Origin: a virus
Lineage: Duplodnaviria > Heunggongvirae > Uroviricota > Caudoviricetes
IMG/VR virus record: IMGVR_UViG_2526164666_000034
DNA: 31,448 nt
Strand: one strand, 5' to 3'
Positions 9,164 to 18,310 of this stretch are shown one piece after another. Position numbers and translations under genes: made by a program. Below the pieces are notes generated by a model. It did no database searches. It was not told the DNA's origin and worked only from the letters and a program-made list of their open reading frames with translations. Position 1 is the stretch's first letter. Every line of letters begins with the position of its first letter.

Positions 9164-9897
9164 ATGGAGACTGTTTTTGACGCACTGAAAGCGATGGGAA
9201 AAGCCACGTCGGTAGAGCTGGCTGCGCGACTTGATATCAGTCGTGAAGAAGTACTGAACGAGCTGTGGGAACTGAAAAAGGCTGGCTTCGTTGATAAAAG
9301 CGTATACACCTGGCGTGTGGCTGATAACAACGTTCAGCAGGAACAGCCAGCGCCAGAAGAAACCACCACGGCAACAGAAGCGAAAATCTCAGAGTGCGAT
9401 TTAACCGCGACGATTGAACAACGCGGACCACAAACGGCGGATGAACTGGCTACGCTGTTCGGTACAACATCCCGCAAAGTTGCTTCAACGCTGGCAATGG
9501 CAATCAGCAAAGGTCGTCTGATTCGCGTAAACCAGAACGGTAAAATTCGTTACTGCATACCAGGTGATAATTTACCAGCAGAGCCGAAAGTTGAATCGGT
9601 AGCGGAAACCGATGGTAAAGCCTTTCCTCAGCCAGCCGGTGTTCGTTACCGGTACAGAAAGATGCAACACAGGAAGATATTAAAACAGAAACTGTGGCGG
9701 ACATTGTGCAGTCGCTGCCATCGTTTACTGCAACGCGAGAAGATGATTTGATTTTGCCATCGCTGCATATGGCAAATCGCGAACTGCGTAGGGCGAAGAA
9801 TCATGTCCAGAAGTGGGAGCGAGTCTGCGCCGCGCTGCGGGAGCTGAACAAGCACCGGGATATGGTTGCCGGGATTTGTCGGAAGTCCGGGCAATGA
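9164..9897 (+). CDS. Hypothetical lambdoid early-region protein; apparent 1-nt frame break near 9630-9660
   Basis: ORFs 9164..9751 and 9694..9897 overlap in different frames; total length is 734 nt (3n+2), consistent with one missing base; the downstream frame looks protein-like only after about 9640. Confidence 0.4.
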
Positions 9898-10756
9898 GCG
9901 GATGGTGCAGGCCTGAAATCATGATACTAATAATGAAGGTAAAATGCATCGGCAGTCTGATTGGTCGTAGTGAGGCGGCGGTCAGGATGAAAGCCCAGGT
10001 TAAGGGAATAAGCCTGATTCTGCGGGGTGATTTTCACCAGTCAACAAAATATCCGTAGCGCGATAACGGTCAAAAATTATGGCGCTGACACTTTTGTGCC
10101 ACTGGAGATGACTGTACCTAAGTTCAGGGGAGAAGAACACGTCCGGTGGGATGGTCGGGCCAGATTTAAAGGGCAGGTCATGGCTCCAGCCTGTACGCTG
10201 GCAATGGAGGCTGCCTGGCGGGAAATTGATATGGGAACCACGCCACTCAGGGATTTACTGCCGGTCCAGAGAATAAATTCCTGTTACGGTTACACCACTG
10301 TGATCTTGCAAGTGCAGGAAAGTAGGTCTACACGGTAACGCGAGTGCGTGTAACTTTTGATGTCATTCCCGTAGAAACACCGGACAAATTTTCGCTGACA
10401 GGTCATGCAGAAGGTATAAATCTGCAGATTATGGACAATTACGGATATCCGGCAAGAGCCGGAAAAAGCATGCCGCCTCTAATTCTCAGTGGAAGATGGA
10501 CTTGATTATACTCATTGCATTGTCAGAAATAGTTATCCATTAAAGGCTGGCTATTCCAAACAGGATGTTGATTACAAAAATGTAATCAACATGTAAGGTT
10601 TATACTCTTCAATATGCGTATAATTTTCCTTATTTTGTTGACTTTAAATAACAAGCTATGCACGAGGTAAAGTCGGATAAGTTTATCTGGATGTAATATA
10701 TATTATTTGTAGTGTTTATAACTTTATTTCATGATAACCAATAAAAGGAGTTTTTT

Positions 10757-11515
10757 ATGAGGAACATAATGGCAGGTTTTTTAATATTCCTGTCTTCTGC
10801 TGCTTATGCTGATATCAATCTGTATGGTCCTGGTGGCCCGCATACAGCCTTGCTTGATGCAGCCAAACTTTATGCCGAAAAAACAGGTATTATAGTGAAC
10901 GTTCATTACGGCCCACAGAACAAATGGAATGAAGATGCCAAAAAAAATGCAGATATCTTGTTTGGCGCATCAGAACAATCTGCTCTGGCTATCATTCGGG
11001 ACCATAAAGACAGCTTCAGTGAAAAAGATATTCAGCCTCTTTATCTGCGAAAAAGTATTTTACTGGTAAAGAAAGGTAATCCTAAAAATATCCGGAGTAT
11101 TGACGACCTGACCAGACCTGGGATTGGCGTAATTGTTAATGATGGTGGTGGTACCAGTAATACATCAGGCACTGGCGTCTGGGAAGATATTGCCGGACGT
11201 AAAGGGAATATAGAAACTGTCGCCGCAATCCGAAAAAATATTATTTTATATGCGCCCAATAGCGGAACTGCACGTAAGGCTCTTGAGAATCAGCCTGGAG
11301 CAGATGTCTGGATAACCTGGGCTGACTGGGCAGCCAGTAATCCAGAAATTGGTGATGTCGTGGAAATAGCGCCAGACTACGTGATATGGCGTGATATGAA
11401 CATTACAGTACGTCAGGATGCAAATGATGAAACCCGTCGATTTGCAGAATGGCTACAAACCGATGAAGCGGCGCCTGCATTCAAAAAATATGGCTGGACC
11501 AGGAAAGGCACTTGA
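10757..11515 (+). CDS. Periplasmic solute-binding protein (ModA-like fold), orphan
   Basis: 252-aa ORF with AAGGAG RBS and a signal peptide (MRNIMAGFLIFLSSAAYA|DI); length and C-terminal ..FKKYGWT.K resemble ModA-type binding proteins; no adjacent permease or ATPase; preceded by ~250 bp of very AT-rich DNA. Confidence 0.6.
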   Translation: MRNIMAGFLIFLSSAAYADINLYGPGGPHTALLDAAKLYAEKTGIIVNVHYGPQNKWNEDAKKNADILFGASEQSALAIIRDHKDSFSEKDIQPLYLRKSILLVKKGNPKNIRSIDDLTRPGIGVIVNDGGGTSNTSGTGVWEDIAGRKGNIETVAAIRKNIILYAPNSGTARKALENQPGADVWITWADWAASNPEIGDVVEIAPDYVIWRDMNITVRQDANDETRRFAEWLQTDEAAPAFKKYGWTRKGT

Positions 11516-11633
11516 CATCCTCGTCCTTCAGGACGTGGATTCTTTTTCCGGATGCCGCGCCAGCGGCATGTAGGGGCAGCTCACAAAACGGAAAAATTGT
11601 ACGCTAAGCCTCGCCAGGTGAACTGAATTCATT

Positions 11634-11657
11634 CCGATATGGGAATTCCCATATCGG
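11634..11657. repeat. Perfect 24-bp palindrome CCGATATGGGAATTCCCATATCGG upstream of hok
   Basis: Read directly from the sequence; lies between the binding-protein gene and the hok locus. Confidence 0.6.
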
Positions 11658-11849
11658 GCGAAAACGGTTTGCTGTAACGGCAGAGTTAAGTAGGATTGCT
11701 GCGGGTGCTTGAGGCTATCTGCCTCGGGCATGAACACCAACGGCAGATAGATAAAAGCCCCACCCGACTATAAATCGAAGTGAGGCCCCTATATGCTCGT
11801 CACATATAGATTGCCTCTTACGGACCGAAAGGTCAAGGAGAAGCAGGCT

Positions 11850-12005
11850 ATGAAGCAGCAAAAGGCGATGTTAATCGCCCTGATCGTCATCTGTTTAACC
11901 GTCATAGTGACGGCACTGGTAACGAGGAAAGACCTCTGCGAGGTACGAATCCGAACCGGCCAGACGGAGGTCGCTGTCTTCACAGCTTACGAACCTGAGG
12001 AGTAA
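11850..12005 (+). CDS. hok: Hok-family type I toxin (HokD/RelF-like)
   Basis: 51-aa protein MKQQKAMLIALIVICLTVIVTALVTRKDLCEVRIRTGQTEVAVFTAYEPEE matches recalled HokD; AAGGAG RBS; in-frame upstream extension from 11793 resembles a mok-like leader; terminator follows. Confidence 0.85.
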   Translation: MKQQKAMLIALIVICLTVIVTALVTRKDLCEVRIRTGQTEVAVFTAYEPEE

Positions 12006-12073
12006 GAGACCAGGCGGGGGAGAAATCCCTCGCCACCTCTGATGTGTCAGGCATCCTCAACGCACCCGCACTT

Positions 12074-12100
12074 AACCCGCTTCGGCGGGTTTTTGTTTTT
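12074..12100 (+). terminator. Rho-independent terminator after hok
   Basis: Hairpin AACCCGC-TTCG-GCGGGTT followed by a T-rich tract. Confidence 0.55.
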
Positions 12101-12225
12101 ATTTTCAACGCGTTTGAAGTTCCGGACGGCGCCGGAATAGAATCAAAAATACTTAAGTAGCGCGCAGGGAGAAGAGGGATGGACCCCGAACAGGGGAGTG
12201 CTATTTATCTGGAAGGATTCTGTTG

Positions 12226-12483
12226 ATGAGAATCGAAGAATTACGTGAAATTTTTAGTGAAGATGGCCTCTATACTGTGCGCGTTGAGAAGGGCGCTATT
12301 GTCAGCCACTGCCGTATTAAATGTTTACAGTCTCAACAAAGGAAGAGTGGAGCTGCGTTAATTCATTTTGTGGATGGGCTTGTGACGGATGGTTTTATTT
12401 TGCGTGCAAATGAATTTGTCACATCGTTGCCGTCTCTGAAAGAAGCTGGGATTAAGGCTGGTTTTTCTGCTTTTGAAGATTAG
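12226..12483 (+). CDS. Hypothetical 85-aa protein
   Basis: ORF with GGAAGGA upstream; no recognisable family. Confidence 0.35.
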   Translation: MRIEELREIFSEDGLYTVRVEKGAIVSHCRIKCLQSQQRKSGAALIHFVDGLVTDGFILRANEFVTSLPSLKEAGIKAGFSAFED

Positions 12484-12552
12484 TGAATTCATCTACAATT
12501 CAGCGCAGGGCTGAACCCCTGTTGAGTAACACTGTGCCACCGGAGAAAGCCG

Positions 12553-12831
12553 ATGGCGCAAAATTCCAGACTACACAATTCTGATAATTCAGCCGTCTTT
12601 GCCAGCAGGCACGGGCGGCGTTCTCATGCATTCAAATCTGACTGGTTCCGGCACGCCCCATGCACTGAAGAACAGGCCGAATGGCTGATTCAGAACTACC
12701 GCAGACGTGGGTATGAGTTTAGGAAAGCCCTCAGCCTCGATTATCGTCACTGGATAATCTACGTCAGGCTGCCGTACTCCGAGCGCCCACCGCGTCCGTC
12801 CCGCACATTCCAGCAACGCATCTGGAGGTAA
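12553..12831 (+). CDS. Hypothetical 92-aa nin-region protein
   Basis: ORF with GGAGAAA RBS; stop lies 1 nt before the GTG start of the next gene; occupies the position of rem in Qin, but similarity was not checked. Confidence 0.4.
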   Translation: MAQNSRLHNSDNSAVFASRHGRRSHAFKSDWFRHAPCTEEQAEWLIQNYRRRGYEFRKALSLDYRHWIIYVRLPYSERPPRPSRTFQQRIWR

Positions 12832-12832
12832 C

Positions 12833-13887
12833 GTGCGGGTATTACTTCGACCTGTTCCGGTACCGGAACTTGGGTTGGTGGTCCTTAAACCAGGCCGTGA
12901 ATCCATGCAGGTATTCCATAACCCTCGAGTGCTTGTGGAGCCGGAACCGAAAAGCATGCGCGGTCTGCCGTCCGGCATCGTCCCTGCCGTTCGCCAGCCG
13001 CTGGCGGAGGATAAATCATTACTGCCGTTTTTCAGCAATGAGCGTGTGATTCGTGCTGTTGGTGGCGCTGGTGCACTGTCTGACTGGCTGTTGCGTCATG
13101 TCAAATCCTGCCAGTGGCCTCATGGTGACTATCATCACAGTGAAACCGTTATTCACCGTTATGGTACCGGCGCAATGGTGTTGTGCTGGCACTGCGACAA
13201 CCAGCTGCGTGACCAGACATCCGAATCACTCGAGCAACTTGCTCATCAAAACCTGTCAGCATGGATGATTGACGTCATCGGTCACGCAATAAGCGGTACG
13301 CAGGAGCGTGAATTATCTCTGGCTGAATTATCCTGGTGGGCGGTCCGCAATCAGGTGGCGGACGCGCTACCGGAAGCGGTATTACGTCGTTCGCTGGGGT
13401 TGCGTGCGGAAAAATCCGCTCAATGTACCGTGAAAGCGACATCGTACCGGGAGAGCAGACCGCCACCATCATACTGAAGCAGCGCACAAAAAATCTTGCG
13501 CCGCTGCCTCACGCCCACCAGCAAAACCCGCCACAGGAAAAGACGGTGGTCAGCATTGCCGTTGATCCGGAGTCACCGGCTCAGTATCTCCAGCGCCAGA
13601 AACCACAACGGGAAGAGATGCCTGTATACACGCGCTGGGTAAAAACGCAGAAATGCATGACGTGCGGTAATCAGGCAGATGATCCGCATCACATCATTGG
13701 TCATGGACTGGGAGGGATGGGAACAAAGGCTGATGATTTGTTTGTTATTCCGCTGTGCCGTAAATGCCATAGCGAACTACACGCCGGGGTAAAAGATTTT
13801 GAAGAAAAACACGGCAGCCAGCTGTTGTTGCTGATTCGTTTTTTAATGCACGCGAGAAATTCGGGTGTCCTGAAGTGGAAAGCATGA
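12833..13887 (+). CDS. YdfU-like nin-region protein with a Cys/His zinc-binding motif; frame broken in a 5-base homopolymer
   Basis: ORFs 12833..13477 and 13336..13887 overlap in different frames; one extra base in the run at 13410-13414 yields one ~350-aa ORF, the size of Qin YdfU; C-terminal CMTCG...HH..GHG...C.KCHSELH motif. Confidence 0.5.
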
Positions 13888-14253: not shown

Positions 14254-14408
14254 ATAACCACTATTTACAGTTTGTGCGTGAGCAGCTCATTATCGCCACC
14301 GCTGATTTGAGTGGGGCAACAAAAGGTCAGCTTGAAGCCTGGCAGGAGAATGCCATGTTCGATACAGGGCGTTACAGGCGAAAAAAATCCGGTACCGCGA
14401 TGAAGTGA
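14250..14408 (+). CDS. Small 52-aa ORF translationally coupled to rusA
   Basis: ATGA start/stop overlap with rusA; below the ORF-track size cutoff. An extra base in the 7-base run at 14381-14387 would fuse it in frame to the downstream Q-like ORF. Confidence 0.35.
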   Translation: MNNHYLQFVREQLIIATADLSGATKGQLEAWQENAMFDTGRYRRKKSGTAMK

Positions 14409-15133: not shown

Positions 15134-15209
15134 GGCCCTTTAGCTCAGTGGTGAGAGCGAGCGACTCATAATCGCCAGGTCGCTGGTTCAAATCCAGCAA
15201 GGGCCACCA
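15134..15209 (+). tRNA. ileZ: tRNA-Ile (anticodon CAU, ileX/ileZ-like)
   Basis: 76-nt cloverleaf ending GGGCCACCA; closely resembles E. coli ileX as recalled; anticodon loop CTCATAA; encoded CCA. Confidence 0.8.
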
Positions 15210-15210
15210 A

Positions 15211-15286
15211 CCGCCACTAGCCATCAGGAAAGAGCGTCAACCCTTTAAGTTGAGTGTGCGAGGTTCGAGTCCCCGGTGGTGGTCCA
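15211..15286 (+). tRNA. tRNA-like gene, identity uncertain (anticodon loop CCUUUAA, nominal UUU)
   Basis: 76 nt with a 7-bp acceptor stem, perfect 5-bp anticodon stem, TTCGAGT T-loop and CCA end, but a weak D-stem and C at position 33; may be a divergent phage tRNA (Arg slot in Stx phages) or a pseudo-tRNA. Confidence 0.5.
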
Positions 15287-15299
15287 TTATCGGTATTCT

Positions 15300-15373
15300 G
15301 CGTTGTTAGCTCAGCAGGACAGAGCAATTGCCTTCTAAGCAATCGGTCACTGGTTCGACTCCAGTACAACGCG
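15300..15373 (+). tRNA. tRNA-Arg (anticodon UCU)
   Basis: Cloverleaf with acceptor GCGTTGT/ACAACGC, anticodon arm ATTGC-CTTCTAA-GCAAT, T-loop TTCGACT; no encoded CCA. Confidence 0.75.
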
Positions 15374-15388
15374 CTACACTTATTTTCC

Positions 15389-15414
15389 CGGCTCGCTTTT
15401 GCGGGCCTTTTTTG
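15389..15414 (+). terminator. Rho-independent terminator downstream of the tRNA cluster
   Basis: GGCTCGC-TTTT-GCGGGCC hairpin (one G-U pair) followed by a run of six T. Confidence 0.5.
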
Positions 15415-15456
15415 TATCTGCGCCACGCCCGGCGCATACCAACCACAGAGCCTTTC

Positions 15457-15470
15457 GGGGGGGGGGGGGG
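15457..15470. repeat. Run of 14 consecutive G
   Basis: Read directly from the sequence; intergenic, between the tRNA terminator and the TerB-like gene. Confidence 0.9.
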
Positions 15471-15552
15471 AGCTTACGGAGTGGTCAGTGTGACTTTCTC
15501 TGTGGGCAGATCGCTCCCGGGCGTTGGCTCACCCACCCAAAGGAACGTCACG

Positions 15553-15985
15553 ATGTTTGGTATTTTTGGTAAAAAAAGCCCGCAGAGCGGCAACGGAAAT
15601 TAAAAAGTTTGAAAAACGCGATCTGGCACAGGTGGTGATTAACGCCGCCTACCTGGTGGCCTATGCAGATGGTGAATGTGAGGCTTCCTAGAAAGCGAAG
15701 ATCGAACAGGTACTGCGTAATCAGCCTGCGCTGTACGCGTTTACGTCAGAAATTAATGCGATTAGCGCAACCATTATCGGTCAGCTGGATACGAACTTTA
15801 AAACTGGTCGTCGTGCGGCGTTACGTGAGATCGAGGATGTGAAACACGATACGCGTGAAGCGGAAGATGTGCTGGATGTGGCGGTGGCCATTGCGGAGGC
15901 AGACGGCGAAATTGAGCCGGAAGAGCGCAAGGTGCTGGAAGAGATTGCCGGTGTTCTGGGTCTTCGTCTGGAGAATTACCTGTGA
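15553..15985 (+). pseudogene. TerB-like (tellurite-resistance TerB family) gene, disrupted by a frameshift and an in-frame TAG
   Basis: ATG at 15553 with AGGA RBS gives MFGIFGKKSPQSGNGN then a stop; the +1 frame continues ..FEKRDLAQVVINAAYLVAYADGECEAS(TAG at 15689-15691)KAKIEQVL....AIAEADGEIEPEERKVLEEIAGVLGL.., a TerB-like pattern. The 7-base run at 15571-15577 is the likely frameshift site. Confidence 0.5.
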
Positions 15986-16149
15986 CGGTAAAACTGCGCC
16001 TGACTGTGGCTGCACTCCTGCTGTTTCTGGTGGTGATGGTGGATTTCACCAGCAGAATCATGTCGGTGCTGGCGGATGGGGTGCTGGTCTGCGGCATTAT
16101 GGTATTGCTGTGGCCGGTGATAAAAAGAAACAGCCTGCATAATGCTTGA
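15982..16149 (+). CDS. Small hydrophobic protein (55 aa) coupled to the TerB-like gene
   Basis: GTG overlapping the TerB-like TGA (GTGA); translation is largely hydrophobic (..LTVAALLLFLVVMV...VLVCGIMVLLWPV..). Confidence 0.3.
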   Translation: MTVKLRLTVAALLLFLVVMVDFTSRIMSVLADGVLVCGIMVLLWPVIKRNSLHNA

Positions 16150-16349
16150 TTTTTTGTTTGCTGTTTATTAAAAACACTTCTGCATGGTGAATCCCCCTGT
16201 GCGGTGGGGCAATCAGCAAGAAGGAATATGGGGTAATCGCGGATTCAGGTGCTGATACTGAATTCACCGGGAGGCACCCGGCACCATGCTTTGCCACAAA
16301 AGTGTTATTTCTGTTTTTCTCAAACTATCATCGTTATCCCTTTATTTTC

Positions 16350-16376
16350 GGCTGCGCATGGCGCGGCCTTTTTTTT
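16350..16376 (+). terminator. Rho-independent terminator upstream of nanS-p
   Basis: GGCTGCGC-ATG-GCGCGGCC hairpin followed by eight T. Confidence 0.45.
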
Positions 16377-16462
16377 ACGACCAGCCACTGGCAGATGGTC
16401 ATCCTGTGATTTGATTCCGCTTCCGGCTTTTTAACTCTGTTCCTCTACACGGGAGAAATTCG

Positions 16463-18310
16463 ATGTCGATTAAACATTACGATGTTATCAGGGCGGCGTC
16501 GCCGTCAGACCTTGCGGAAAAGCTGACACACAAACTGAAAGAGGGCTGGCAGCCATACGGCGGACCGGTTGCCATTACGCCGTACACACTGATGCAGGCG
16601 GTGGCTATTGAAGGAGAGCCACAGGTCGGCCCTTCATCTGAGCCGGATTGGTACTACGTCATCGTACTGGCCGGGCAGTCCAATGCCATGGCTTACGGTG
16701 AAGGGCTTCCGCTGCCGGATTCTTACGATGCTCCGGATCCGCGCATTAAACAGCTGGCGCGCCGCAGTACAGTTACGCCGGGTGGGGCTGCCTGCAGATA
16801 TAACGATATTATTCCGGCCGACCACTGCCTGCATGATGTGCAGGATATGAGTACGCTGAATCATCCGAAGGCAGACCTGAGCAAAGGGCAGTACGGCTGT
16901 GTCGGCCAGGGGTTACATATTGCCAAAAAACTGCTCCCGTATATCCCGAATAACGCGGGGATCCTGCTGGTACCATGCTGTCGTGGTGGTTCGGCATTTA
17001 CCCAGGGCGCGGAGGGGACATTCAGTGCGGACACGGGGGCCAGCCAGGATTCGGCGCGCTGGGGTGTGGGTAAACCGTTATATCAGGACCTGATTGCGCG
17101 CACCAAAGCTGCATTACAGAAGAACCCGAAAAATGTGTTGCTGGCGGTGTGCTGGATGCAGGGAGAGTTTGACATGAGCGCCGCCACCCACGCACAGCAA
17201 CCTGCGCTGTTTACAGCCATGCTGACACAGTTTCGTGCTGACCTCTCCGTGTTTAACGCGCAGTGCCATGGTGGCAGTGCTGCAGATGTGCCGTGGATTT
17301 GTGGTGACACGACGTATTACTGGAAAAATACCTACGGCACCCAGTACAACACCATTTACGGGGCGTACAAAAACAGGGAGAGTGAGGGCGTTTATTTTGT
17401 GCCCTTCATGACAGACGGTAACGGCGTCAATACCGCCACTAACGCGCCGGCAGAAGATCCGGATATTCCGGCATCAGGATATTACGGTGCGGCATCGAGA
17501 ACGAATGGAAACCAGGTATCATCAAACCGCCCGACACATTTCAGTTCATGGGCGCGCAGGAGCATTATTCCGGATCGTATGGCAACCGCTATTCTGAACG
17601 CAGCCGGGCGCACCTCAGCCTTCATCAGTGGTAAGGCACCGGAAATCAAACCCTCGCCCGGCGGCAACACGCCATCGGGTCCGTCTGCAGATACGTCCGT
17701 TCGCACAATCTCCCTGCTGCCGGCAGCCGGAGAGGCTGCTGCGCAGGGCTGGAGCATTAAGGATGGCGGAATTCAGTTGTCAGATGGTGTATTTAAGATC
17801 ACCAAGCAGAGCAATAAAACCTGGTCCCTGACGCATCCGGTGGATGACGCAATTACCCTGCTGACACAGGGCGGCAGACTGACCTGTAAGTTCCGCCTGT
17901 CAGGCGCACTGACCAACAATCAGTTCGGGCTGGGGATTTATCTGTATACGGATGCTCCCGTTCCTGATGGTGTGGCGATGACGGGTACCGGTAATCCGTT
18001 CCTGATGTCGTACTTCACTCAGACCACTGACGGCAGAGTGAATCTGATGCATCACAGGAAAGCCGGAAACACGAAGCTGGGGGAGTTCGGCGATTACGGT
18101 AACGACTGGCAGACGCTGGAGCTGGTGTTCACCGCCGGCAGTGCCACGGTTACTCCGAAACTGAATGGAGTGGCTGGCCCGGCATTCCAGGTTATAAAAG
18201 ACAGTCTGACACTGGGACTGAATGCGCTGACGGATGTTACAAAAAATGCAGCGTATGGCGTTGAGATAGAAAGTCTGGTGCTGGAGATAAATGCACCGGC
18301 ATCATCATAA
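16463..18310 (+). CDS. nanS: Prophage sialate O-acetylesterase NanS-p (DUF1737 N-terminus plus esterase domain)
   Basis: 615-aa ORF; N-terminus [28 protein letters not shown].. and a GQSN motif block (..[18 protein letters not shown]..) fit the NanS-p proteins encoded between Q/tRNAs and the lysis genes of Stx-type phages. Confidence 0.75.

Follow-up and report, generated by a model that had tools for sequence, protein, structure and literature searches.

The lone binding-protein gene that lies between the replication genes and hok in this prophage is paa (synonym adfO), that is z2053 of O-island 57 in prophage CP-933O of strain EDL933, and its product represents the AcfC/PEB3/Paa family in E. 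coli. The gene has already been described as an adherence and colonisation factor carried as prophage cargo in pathogenic E. coli, and it is a virulence marker (OI-57) routinely typed in EHEC, EPEC and ETEC; its presence here is thus a known finding and adds nothing to gene discovery. It is carried by a lambdoid prophage, one of the "PPompW" type that integrates at ompW. Taking identity and function together, we consider it very probable that the gene is paa/adfO cargo whose periplasmic product, in its ligand-bound form, aids adherence and gut colonisation without importing the ligand. The window analysed is the whole stretch of 31,448 nucleotides, to which all coordinates refer. The features of the locus are as follows:

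9868..11682, plus strand: variable cargo slot, from the DUF1627 gene to the hok/sok module (blastn against the paa-less prophage L007)
10063..10596, plus strand: fimbrial-subunit pseudogene, frameshifted and with an internal stop (RefSeq annotation of a 99.9% identical locus)
10567..10590, no strand assigned: inverted repeat with perfectly matching 10-bp arms, GTTGATTACA-AAAA-TGTAATCAAC, bounding the paa cassette on its left
10597..10756, plus strand: AT-rich intergenic region, presumed promoter/regulatory, 160 bp with 26% GC (0.263)
10745..10750, plus strand: Shine-Dalgarno AAGGAG, 6 nt 5' of the ATG at 10757 (from the sequence)
10757..10810, plus strand: predicted Sec (type I) signal peptide, 18 codons, cut after AYA, without lipobox (hydropathy)
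10757..11515, plus strand: paa/adfO coding sequence, 252 aa including the signal peptide (ORF listing; stop TGA at 11513-11515)
11522..11545, plus strand: terminator-like hairpin CGTCC-TTCA-GGACG with a T-rich tail, 7 nt past the stop (consensus scan)
11552..11569, plus strand: second hairpin ATGCCGC-GCCA-GCGGCAT, close to the right-hand end of the cassette (allele alignment)

Identity, reading frame and fold of Paa

The protein encoded in the window is 100% identical, at 100% coverage, to RefSeq cluster P0001, "AcfC family adhesin Paa [Escherichia coli]", and the DNA is 99.9% identical to loci annotated as paa or Paa/AdfO in RefSeq and GenBank annotations and in phage records. The phage records label the gene Paa/AdfO, z2053 of O-island 57 in EDL933. 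In the literature, adfO is likewise z2053 of OI-57 (PMC8565820), and adfO and paa are given as synonyms (PMC10562709).

The open reading frame at 10757..11515 encodes a precursor of 27.7 kDa, whose N-terminus (MRNIMAGFLIFLSSAAYA, followed after the predicted cut by DINLYGPGG) displays one basic residue, a hydrophobic core with a Kyte-Doolittle 9-mer maximum of 2.83, and the cleavage motif A-Y-A, while the cysteine of a lipobox is absent. The earlier note's description of a 252-aa protein with a signal peptide is therefore correct. Two starts are in use for this gene, giving 252 aa in RefSeq and 248 aa in LC567822. The former is favoured because of the Shine-Dalgarno sequence at 10745..10750 and because AATAAAAGGAG is unchanged across three diverged paa alleles in a three-way alignment. 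Aligned residue 19 coincides exactly with the first residue of the crystallised mature PEB3 chains, and residues 1-15 have a pLDDT below 50 in the AlphaFold2 model of Paa. Both the periplasmic location of Paa and the cleavage of its signal peptide are predicted from the sequence.

Paa is similar over nearly its whole length to PEB3 (Cj0289c) of Campylobacter jejuni (E 1.2e-81, residues 11-248) and to AcfC (VC_0841) of Vibrio cholerae (E 3.5e-81, residues 16-248), sharing 52-53% identity with the solved structures of both, and it matches the Pfam family SBP_bac_11 (5.5e-34). When the AlphaFold2 model (pLDDT 90.9, pTM 0.85) was compared with known structures by Foldseek, the best match was AcfC (4jb7; TM 0.90, rmsd 1.2 A, 52% identity), and the PEB3 chains gave TM values of 0.87-0.88 (3fj7: 0.88). 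The next-best structural matches, ModA and Sbp, reach a TM of about 0.7 at 12-19% identity and an rmsd of about 4 A. According to the model, Paa would adopt the two-lobed class-II periplasmic-binding-protein fold of PDB entries 2hxw and 4jb7 and would be nearly superimposable on AcfC and PEB3.

The sequence motifs point in the same direction. An alignment of 22 AcfC/PEB3/Paa sequences, which spans Enterobacterales, Aeromonas, Vibrio, Francisella, Helicobacter and Campylobacter and goes down to 51% identity, contains 53 invariant columns. The family-invariant motifs GPGGPH, G-x-S-x-QS, SNTSGTGVWED, NSG, W-x-TW-x-DW and R212/N215 are all intact in Paa, where they are probably placed at the cleft between the lobes. 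Paa thus has the full-length similarity, the fold, the motifs and the N-terminal Sec signal of the family, export itself being predicted.

As to the description of the protein as ModA-like, it is appropriate for the structural class and fails for the family. ModA and Sbp/CysP are oxyanion binders that, like Paa, have the class-II fold and belong to the SBP_bac_11 family or clan; Paa shares little sequence with them, and its gene has no modBC or cysUWA neighbours. In an NCBIfam scan, Paa matched no model dedicated to Paa/AcfC, and the sulfate and molybdate matches that did appear stayed below threshold: 18.3 bits against a cut-off of 62.5 for TIGR01256 (modA), 11.7-17.7 bits against cut-offs of 253-470 for the modA models NF002920, NF002918 and NF007958, and 21.5 bits against 155.5 for the sulfate-binding family model. 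Moreover, no modB permease or modC ATPase gene is adjacent in two annotated equivalents of the window or beside the plasmid alleles described below. Membership of the ModA family was therefore rejected, since the modA scores lie far under the cut-off and ModA shares the general fold only. A phage structural protein was also considered, and is rejected by the Pfam and structural matches. Homology and structure prediction, which the earlier note had proposed as a check, thus find a binding-protein fold and exclude a phage structural family, so that the core of that note stands, although it is not new.

Within this close relationship, Paa and PEB3 differ in several respects. The two are 52-53% identical across the whole mature protein, and the motif set, SNTSGTGVWED included, is conserved between them; however, PEB3 is N-glycosylated at the sequon DFNVS, and Paa has no such sequon because the aligned stretch is DSFSEK. 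Position 133 is a threonine in Paa and corresponds to Lys135 of PEB3, the residue mutated in PDB 3fir, and the specificity of Paa may therefore differ from that of PEB3. Furthermore, PEB3 is chromosomal whereas paa is prophage-borne. The ligands 3-phosphoglycerate, PEP, phospholactate and citrate are those of PEB3; PEB3 is listed with PEP and 3-phosphoglycerate in the literature (PMC8835900), and PDB titles name PEB3 with L-phospholactate and AcfC with D-aspartate.

The paa cassette in prophage and plasmids

paa is located downstream of the replication-region genes and of the DUF1627 gene (early region), and is followed by sok (Rfam RF01794, 11703-11852, 103.9 bits) and hokD; an Rfam scan of 9500-12600 detected nothing beyond sok. 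The annotation and the sok match bear out the position between the replication genes and hok that had been read from the sequence. On the other hand, the gene does not quite sit alone, as had been stated: it has no transporter partner, but the fimbrial pseudogene at 10063-10596 lies directly upstream in the same insert. This pseudogene was identified from the RefSeq annotation and from a comparison with strain CPww7, in which an intact subunit gene belonging to a chaperone-usher operon is 86% identical in nucleotide sequence to positions 10091-10555, whereas a Pfam search with its ORF fragments, which are too broken, gave no match.

Comparison by blastn with the related prophage L007 defines the insert: backbone homology ends at 9867 and restarts at 11683, and L007, which lacks paa, has DUF977 and QueH in the same slot. 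The arrangement with the fimbrial pseudogene on the 5' side and hokD on the 3' side recurs in O157, O26, O103, O111 and other STEC strains and in PPompW phage records. The surrounding prophage in the window lacks the IS1203 insertion of strain PV15-279 and, compared with LC567822, has several 1-nt frameshifts; apparent 1-nt deletions affect the dicA-like, DUF1627, DUF968 and Q genes. The region is carried by 577 of 5426 complete E. coli genomes, and its hok part alone is matched in 2989. The base composition also sets the insert apart, the GC content being 0.416 in the paa cassette and 0.263 in the intergenic region as compared to 0.518-0.529 in the flanks. A phage "moron" is, reportedly following Hendrix and colleagues, an autonomous cargo unit. 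The reading of paa as such a gene is upheld by its insertion between backbone genes, its deviant GC content and its absence from related prophages such as L007.

The paa cassette of about 1 kb (10563-11575) is found again on F plasmids of porcine and bovine ETEC/STEC, such as pSTEC388_3 and pCFS3246-1. The plasmid alleles share the inverted repeat, the TATAAT, the Shine-Dalgarno sequence, an ORF of 252-253 aa and the 3' hairpins, and likewise have no transporter genes, although they are only 86-89% identical to the window at the nucleotide level and are named in RefSeq merely as "substrate-binding domain-containing protein". Their surroundings are different: IS elements with sta1 or plasmid maintenance genes, instead of phage genes, flank the cassette, and the fimbrial pseudogene is absent. 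Homology to these alleles starts at the inverted repeat (10567..10590), which is partly degenerate in pCFS3246-1, and stops at about 11575-11583 (blastn end point 11575). The hairpin at 11522..11545 is kept in two of the three paa alleles, its left arm being deleted in pCFS3246-1. The fact that the upstream region accompanies paa on the plasmids argues for autonomy of the unit.

The upstream DNA had been called AT-rich and promoter-like. The first part is correct, since the GC content drops to 0.275-0.305 in 200-nt windows over 10500-10800 as compared to 0.514 for the whole window. As for the second, no sigma-70 promoter above chance was found. A consensus scan of 10300-12100 gave two weak sites, both outside the AT-rich stretch, and this number is lower than expected by chance (4.0 +/- 1.7 in shuffled controls). 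A relaxed scan yielded nothing convincing either, because no -35 element can be recognised ahead of the perfect TATAAT at 10619. This hexamer (10619-10624) is nevertheless unchanged in the three paa alleles, and the term "promoter-like" therefore rests on base composition and on the conserved TATAAT, the consensus match being poor. We presume that paa has a promoter of its own in this region. The inverted repeat at the left edge of the cassette is absent upstream of the homologues in Edwardsiella, Enterobacter, Vibrio, Campylobacter, Francisella, Helicobacter, Aeromonas and Salmonella, and is therefore specific to the E. coli cassette. To our knowledge, it does not fit, by eye, the consensus sites of FNR, CRP, TyrR, ArgR, Fur or Zur.

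Absence of a transporter partner

In two records of the arrangement seen in the window, the annotation shows neither a permease nor an ATPase gene for approximately 6-11 kb around paa. The same holds more widely: a dedicated permease or ATPase is found in 0 of 11 contexts in 8 genera, namely the prophage, two plasmids and single homologue loci in each of the eight genera listed above. At the Campylobacter locus examined, for instance, the PEB3-family gene is alone and without transporter neighbours, like paa. In Edwardsiella and Enterobacter, ABC systems do occur 0.7-1.9 kb from the homologue, but they have a binding protein of their own; nor do the eight homologue loci share a recurrent partner gene. 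The claim that the binding protein is an orphan is thus confirmed, and it extends to the AcfC/PEB3/Paa family as a whole. Docking of Paa to a distant transporter would be compatible with an empty neighbourhood.

The comparison with AcfC is instructive also at the level of genetic context. AcfC and Paa are both encoded on horizontally acquired virulence elements (VPI-1 in the case of V. cholerae), and both are linked to intestinal colonisation; however, acfC shares a ToxT-controlled transcript with the chemoreceptor gene acfB, and paa has no such partner.

Possible roles of Paa

The family-wide orphan status, the strict conservation of the motifs from Campylobacter to E. coli and the occurrence of paa as a cassette of about 1 kb together favour a ligand-dependent, non-transport role. 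By analogy with its homologues, Paa would be exported to the periplasm, possibly being released further as reported for them, and would close over a small anionic ligand. Candidate ligands are phosphorylated three-carbon acids, as in the case of PEB3, or, following a suggestion made for AcfC, a sulfate or carboxylate group; the same anionic groups might also be borne on mucin or glycosaminoglycans. Ligand-bound Paa would then promote the adherence of the lysogen and gut colonisation, the ligand not being imported. Its action may be indirect, periplasmic sensing altering secretion, chemotaxis or surface properties; this is the weakest step of the proposal, although we regard it as more likely than the action of a classical surface adhesin.

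The reported phenotypes so far connect Paa/AdfO with adherence, protein secretion and colonisation, and AcfC with mucin chemotaxis. In the summary given by a later paper, an adfO mutant adheres less well to HeLa cells and secretes less of several proteins (PMC8565820), and RNA-seq showed that the gene is induced in EDL933 by bovine rumen and rectum contents (PMC8524897). A role in lysogenic conversion, as put forward in the earlier note, fits the published reports on adherence and colonisation. Its specific proposal of ligand sequestration, in which Paa would mop up a periplasmic or extracellular small molecule and keep it away from competitors or a host sensor, is so far unsupported and appears highly improbable. 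Paa would suit such a function in that it stands alone, its cleft is conserved and its gene has a strong ribosome-binding site; however, the adherence, secretion, chemotaxis and colonisation phenotypes are not obviously explained by it, and anions as abundant as sulfate or phosphate esters could presumably not be removed effectively by stoichiometric binding.

That Paa is itself an adhesin is possible, though we doubt it. Surface-exposed or released Paa, for example via the type 2 secretion system of pO157, would bind molecules of the host cell or mucus, using its anion cleft in a lectin-like manner and helping early attachment before attaching-and-effacing lesions form. This is the function implied by the RefSeq and literature name, which is at odds with the indirect action preferred above. 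Paa and PEB3 are "considered to be adhesins", and PEB3 is described as a surface-localised glycoprotein. AcfC binds heparin, chondroitin sulfate and mucin (PMC5976639), its binding to sulfated glycosaminoglycans and mucin having been detected by ELISA, and the poor HeLa adherence summarised for the adfO mutant would also agree. On the other hand, Paa has no lipobox, beta-barrel, autotransporter or fimbrial anchoring feature. Fractionation places AcfC in the periplasm, and chemotaxis to mucin depends on it whereas cell adhesion does not (PMC5976639); it mediated no attachment to Caco-2 or HT-29MTX cells, and this was also true of E. coli expressing it. Since the adfO mutant, in the same summary, also loses secretion of other proteins, its adherence defect may be indirect.

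The requirement of AcfC for mucin chemotaxis and the fact that acfC and the MCP gene acfB share an operon (PMC5976639) point instead to a co-receptor in chemotaxis or signalling, and docking of AcfC on AcfB has been proposed. Applied to E. coli, loaded Paa would dock on an MCP or a sensor kinase and steer the lysogen towards mucus-derived anions, a tentative and rather doubtful reading. MBP with Tar is a precedent for this kind of docking. The absence of transporters across the family fits a sensory role, the Enterobacter homologue adjoins a hybrid sensor kinase with SBP_bac_3 domains, and the gene is discussed among chemotaxis genes in the transcriptome of EDL933 in bovine contents (PMC8524897). 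Yet no MCP or kinase gene lies beside paa in the prophage or the two plasmids, a receptor partner in E. coli is not known, and the homologue neighbourhoods lack a common partner; the AcfC data may not transfer to E. coli. Delivery of an anion (sulfate, thiosulfate, a phosphorylated acid or a molybdate-like ion) to a chromosomal ABC importer such as CysUWA, by which the substrate range or affinity of the lysogen would widen, is improbable. The fold and the weak sequence matches do point to sulfate, thiosulfate and molybdate ABC binding proteins, and CysUWA of E. coli, which already serves the two binding proteins Sbp and CysP, provides a precedent for such sharing; but none of the 11 contexts has a cognate permease or ATPase, the nearby ABC systems have a binding protein of their own, and the transporter-family models score far under their cut-offs.

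Returning to the ligand-dependent role without import, a bolder version of it would hold that AcfC, PEB3 and Paa are transporter-independent periplasmic anion sensors rather than adhesins, and that the inverted repeat is an operator for a host regulator. Taken as a whole, this combination seems unlikely. If it were true, a prophage or plasmid delivering paa would bring a new sensory input, for instance for mucus-derived sulfated or phosphorylated compounds, feeding a resident chemoreceptor, kinase or secretion system, and the 10-bp inverted repeat at the cassette edge would serve the host regulator in timing expression in the gut. The cassette is common to prophages and F plasmids, and its motifs and regulatory DNA define mutants with which these roles can be tested.

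Identity, fold and conserved motifs of Paa

The lone binding-protein gene of this prophage is paa (adfO). Its product matches over the full length, and at 100% identity, the NCBI cluster "AcfC family adhesin Paa [Escherichia coli]" (616 member sequences), and the surrounding 1.5 kb reappear at 99.9% identity in Shiga-toxin-producing E. coli, O157:H7, O26, O103 and O111 among them, where the annotation reads "paa: AcfC family adhesin Paa" and the gene adjoins a "fimbrial protein" pseudogene. At least 80% of this 1.5-kb stretch is present in 577 of 5426 complete E. coli genomes. Eleven PPompW_* phage records (ompW-integrating prophages) name the gene [quoted passage not shown] and place gef/hok after it; with one of these records, LC567822, the window shares 99.6% identity over its first 15.4 kb. 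A review of the O157 O-islands equates adfO with z2053 of OI-57 (PMC8565820), and adfO is the same gene as paa (PMC10562709). Published work already describes the gene: that it is homologous to PEB3 and AcfC, that it occurs in the OI-57 prophage and on plasmids, that it serves as a virulence marker and that the lysogen expresses it. The finding is therefore already known, although the raw-sequence reasoning of the earlier note was largely sound. Specialist-level additions are the family-wide orphan status, the slot in which the cargo varies, and the defined cassette boundaries, where an inverted repeat is conserved.

The features at the gene itself are:

10745-10750, + strand: Shine-Dalgarno AAGGAG, 6 nt ahead of the first ATG
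10757..11515, + strand: paa ORF, 252 codons (ORF listing)

Because the Shine-Dalgarno block is unchanged in an alignment of three diverged alleles, the 252-aa start (RefSeq) is likelier than the 248-aa start of LC567822. The N-terminus (MRNIMAGFLIFLSSAAYA, then DINLYGPGG) is a predicted Sec signal peptide of type I; the earlier note had already called the product a signal-peptide protein. Inspection of the N-terminal sequence revealed no lipobox. Aligned residue 19 corresponds to the first residue of the crystallised mature PEB3 chains.

Paa falls in the Pfam family SBP_bac_11 (E = 5.5e-34), and among solved structures it matches best to PEB3 of C. jejuni (E = 1.2e-81) and AcfC of V. cholerae (E = 3.5e-81), in each case over essentially the whole mature protein. 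The AlphaFold2 model, built with 22 homologues as input (mean pLDDT 90.9), superposes on AcfC (PDB 4jb7) with a TM-score of 0.90 and an rmsd of 1.2 Å, and on PEB3 with TM-scores of 0.87-0.88. Comparison with ModA and the sulfate-binding proteins gives a TM-score of ~0.7 at 12-19% identity, but the curated models of these families, modA included, score far under their cut-offs and membership was rejected; the "ModA-like fold pattern" noted earlier is therefore right for the fold and wrong for the family. Neither of the two outcomes named in advance as fatal to the proposal, lack of a binding-protein fold and membership of a phage structural family, was found.

An alignment of 22 family members with identity down to 51%, drawn from Enterobacterales, Aeromonas, Vibrio, Francisella, Helicobacter and Campylobacter, contains 53 invariant columns. 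These include GPGGPH (24-29), G70/S72/Q74/S75, GNP (107-109), SNTSGTG-WED (134-144), NSG (168-170), W185/T187/W188/D190/W191 and R212/N215. The glycine/serine/threonine-rich loop is the portion weakly matching sulfate-binding proteins, and by analogy with these proteins the residues should line an inter-lobe anion pocket. The ligands in the structures of relatives are L-phospholactate (PEB3, 3fj7) and D-aspartate (AcfC, 4jb7), and for PEB3 a review tabulates PEP and 3-phosphoglycerate (PMC8835900). Paa differs from PEB3 in having DSFSEK, without a sequon, in place of the N-glycosylation sequon DFNVS, and Thr in place of Lys135, the residue mutated in 3fir.

Genomic setting of paa

In agreement with the position first assigned to it, paa lies between replication-region genes followed by a DUF1627 gene, upstream, and sok (Rfam match 11703-11852, 103.9 bits) and hokD, downstream; no permease or ATPase gene is annotated nearby in equivalent prophage records, including LC567822. 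Eight homologue neighbourhoods were compared (Edwardsiella, Enterobacter bugandensis, V. cholerae, Campylobacter, Francisella, Helicobacter pametensis, Aeromonas and Salmonella), that of V. cholerae being an island with tcp and toxT-like genes. A dedicated permease or ATPase occurs in 0/11 contexts (the eight homologues, the prophage and two plasmids), which upholds the orphan claim, and the lack of a transporter partner is a family trait. The ABC systems within a few kilobases of the Edwardsiella and Enterobacter homologues have their own binding protein and are set apart from the homologue by 0.7-1.9 kb, and no partner gene of any other kind recurs among the eight neighbourhoods. In Edwardsiella and Enterobacter the GC of the homologue is well under that of its surroundings, which suggests horizontal acquisition there too. 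Two single observations may be added: the E. bugandensis homologue (L010, 7421-11014) adjoins a 1197-aa hybrid sensor kinase with SBP_bac_3 domains and several response regulators, and that of Aeromonas (L017) sits in a mobile-looking region with AlpA, DsbA-like and FaeA-like genes.

Backbone homology to the paa-less prophage of strain ZH193 ends at 9867, the end of the DUF1627 gene, and picks up again at 11683, in the hok/sok module. Because ZH193 holds a DUF977 gene and queH (epoxyqueuosine reductase) there (L007, 2770-4142), instead of the fimbrial pseudogene and paa, the slot at 9868-11682 is, by this sequence comparison, a variable cargo position in this lambdoid prophage group. The insert contains the following elements, those from 10567 on being common to prophage and plasmids in this order, with the invariant Shine-Dalgarno block and the ORF between the TATAAT and the first hairpin:

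10063-10596: fimbrial-subunit pseudogene directly upstream of paa, frameshifted, with an internal stop
10567-10590: perfect 10-bp inverted repeat GTTGATTACA-AAAA-TGTAATCAAC (4-bp spacer), where prophage/plasmid homology starts
10619-10624: invariant TATAAT, ~30 bp downstream of the inverted repeat
11522-11545: terminator-like hairpin with a T tail, after the ORF
11552-11569: second hairpin, after the terminator-like one

Thus paa is "alone", as first described, in having no transporter partner, but it shares its insert with the pseudogene. Positions 10091-10555 of the latter are 86% identical in DNA to an intact subunit gene in a chaperone-usher fimbrial operon of strain CPww7, so that the cargo is a patchwork of two pieces, each related to adhesion but not to the other. 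The CPww7 counterpart is the second subunit gene (L006, 6923-7510) of a PapB/FocB-regulated operon. The stretch 10563-11575 has counterparts, at 86-89% identity, in the paa alleles that F-type plasmids carry in porcine and bovine strains; IS1 copies flank one of these alleles, which adjoins the heat-stable enterotoxin gene sta1. To judge from these alignments, paa is borne on a self-contained, apparently mobile cassette. The inverted repeat at its edge, absent upstream of paa homologues in other genera, may be an operator or else the trace of a recombination event.

The cassette has a GC of 0.416 against 0.52-0.53 in its flanks. Upstream of the ORF the value drops to 0.263 (10597-10756), with 0.275-0.305 in 200-nt windows over 10500-10800, against 0.514 for the whole window; the AT-richness reported earlier is real, but a consensus scan found no sigma-70 promoter in this stretch, so that "promoter-like" applies to its composition and conserved TATAAT. 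The moron assignment holds: a low-GC cassette in a variable slot that breaks the backbone homology from 9867 to 11683 matches the usual description, except that the promoter is only putative.

Possible modes of action of Paa

By its sequence and predicted structure, Paa is a soluble binding protein of two lobes, exported through Sec; the invariant family motifs are intact, and it has no transporter partner. Two papers, citing earlier work, tie the Paa/AdfO genes to attaching-effacing adherence (PMC8565820, PMC10562709); the former also summarises reduced secretion of several proteins in an adfO mutant, and a third reports induction of paa in EDL933 in bovine rumen and rectum contents (PMC8524897). 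The periplasmic protein AcfC binds mucin and sulfated glycosaminoglycans; chemotaxis to mucin and normal intestinal distribution require it, whereas adhesion to cultured cells does not (PMC5976639). Paa would close on a small anionic group, and the ligand-closed protein may promote colonisation with no uptake of the ligand.

An indirect, periplasmic sensory route of this kind is somewhat more likely than a true surface adhesin, because Paa has no anchoring feature, the AcfC data agree with such a route and the secretion effects of the adfO mutant are pleiotropic. For these same reasons a direct, lectin-like adhesin, for all the link to adherence, is possible but doubtful. That Paa works as a co-receptor of a chemoreceptor or kinase, a special case of the sensory route, is rather unlikely when taken by itself. 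Service as an accessory binding protein to a distant ABC importer appears improbable, and the ligand sequestration originally proposed has very little chance of being correct.

Other features of the prophage

Relative to LC567822, the window is short of single bases at 6778, 9643, 11591, 13409 and 14380, and also at 3144, most of them in runs of A or T. The genes split in this way are those of the dicA-like repressor, DUF1627 (9164-9751 / 9694-9897), DUF968/ydfU (12833-13477 / 13336-13887) and the Q antiterminator (frameshift near 14380), while paa is intact. Either the prophage is defective and truly decaying, or the source assembly contains homopolymer errors. Near the integrase end, a large exonuclease-like gene (1422-3893, - strand) is broken into the overlapping ORFs 1422-3155, 2912-3577 and 3453-3893; it corresponds to the LC567822 pseudogene "putative exonuclease; frameshifted", with different indels (4-nt and 1-nt differences at 2492, 3144 and 3455).

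Three tRNA genes (Met-CAT, Lys-TTT and Arg-TCT; 15134-15374) come after the Q gene, and the ~1.1 kb beyond them (15375-16462) contain no ORF of at least 100 aa. In Stx phages the Shiga-toxin genes occupy the corresponding position; no ORF of StxA size (~319 aa) is present in this gap. From 15464 on the window no longer follows the PPompW records, where ISEc20 is found at this point, and is similar to late regions of the PPyecE type. A 615-aa ORF (16463-18310) lies within a stretch matching a record with a 9-O-acetyl-N-acetylneuraminic acid deacetylase gene (yjhS).
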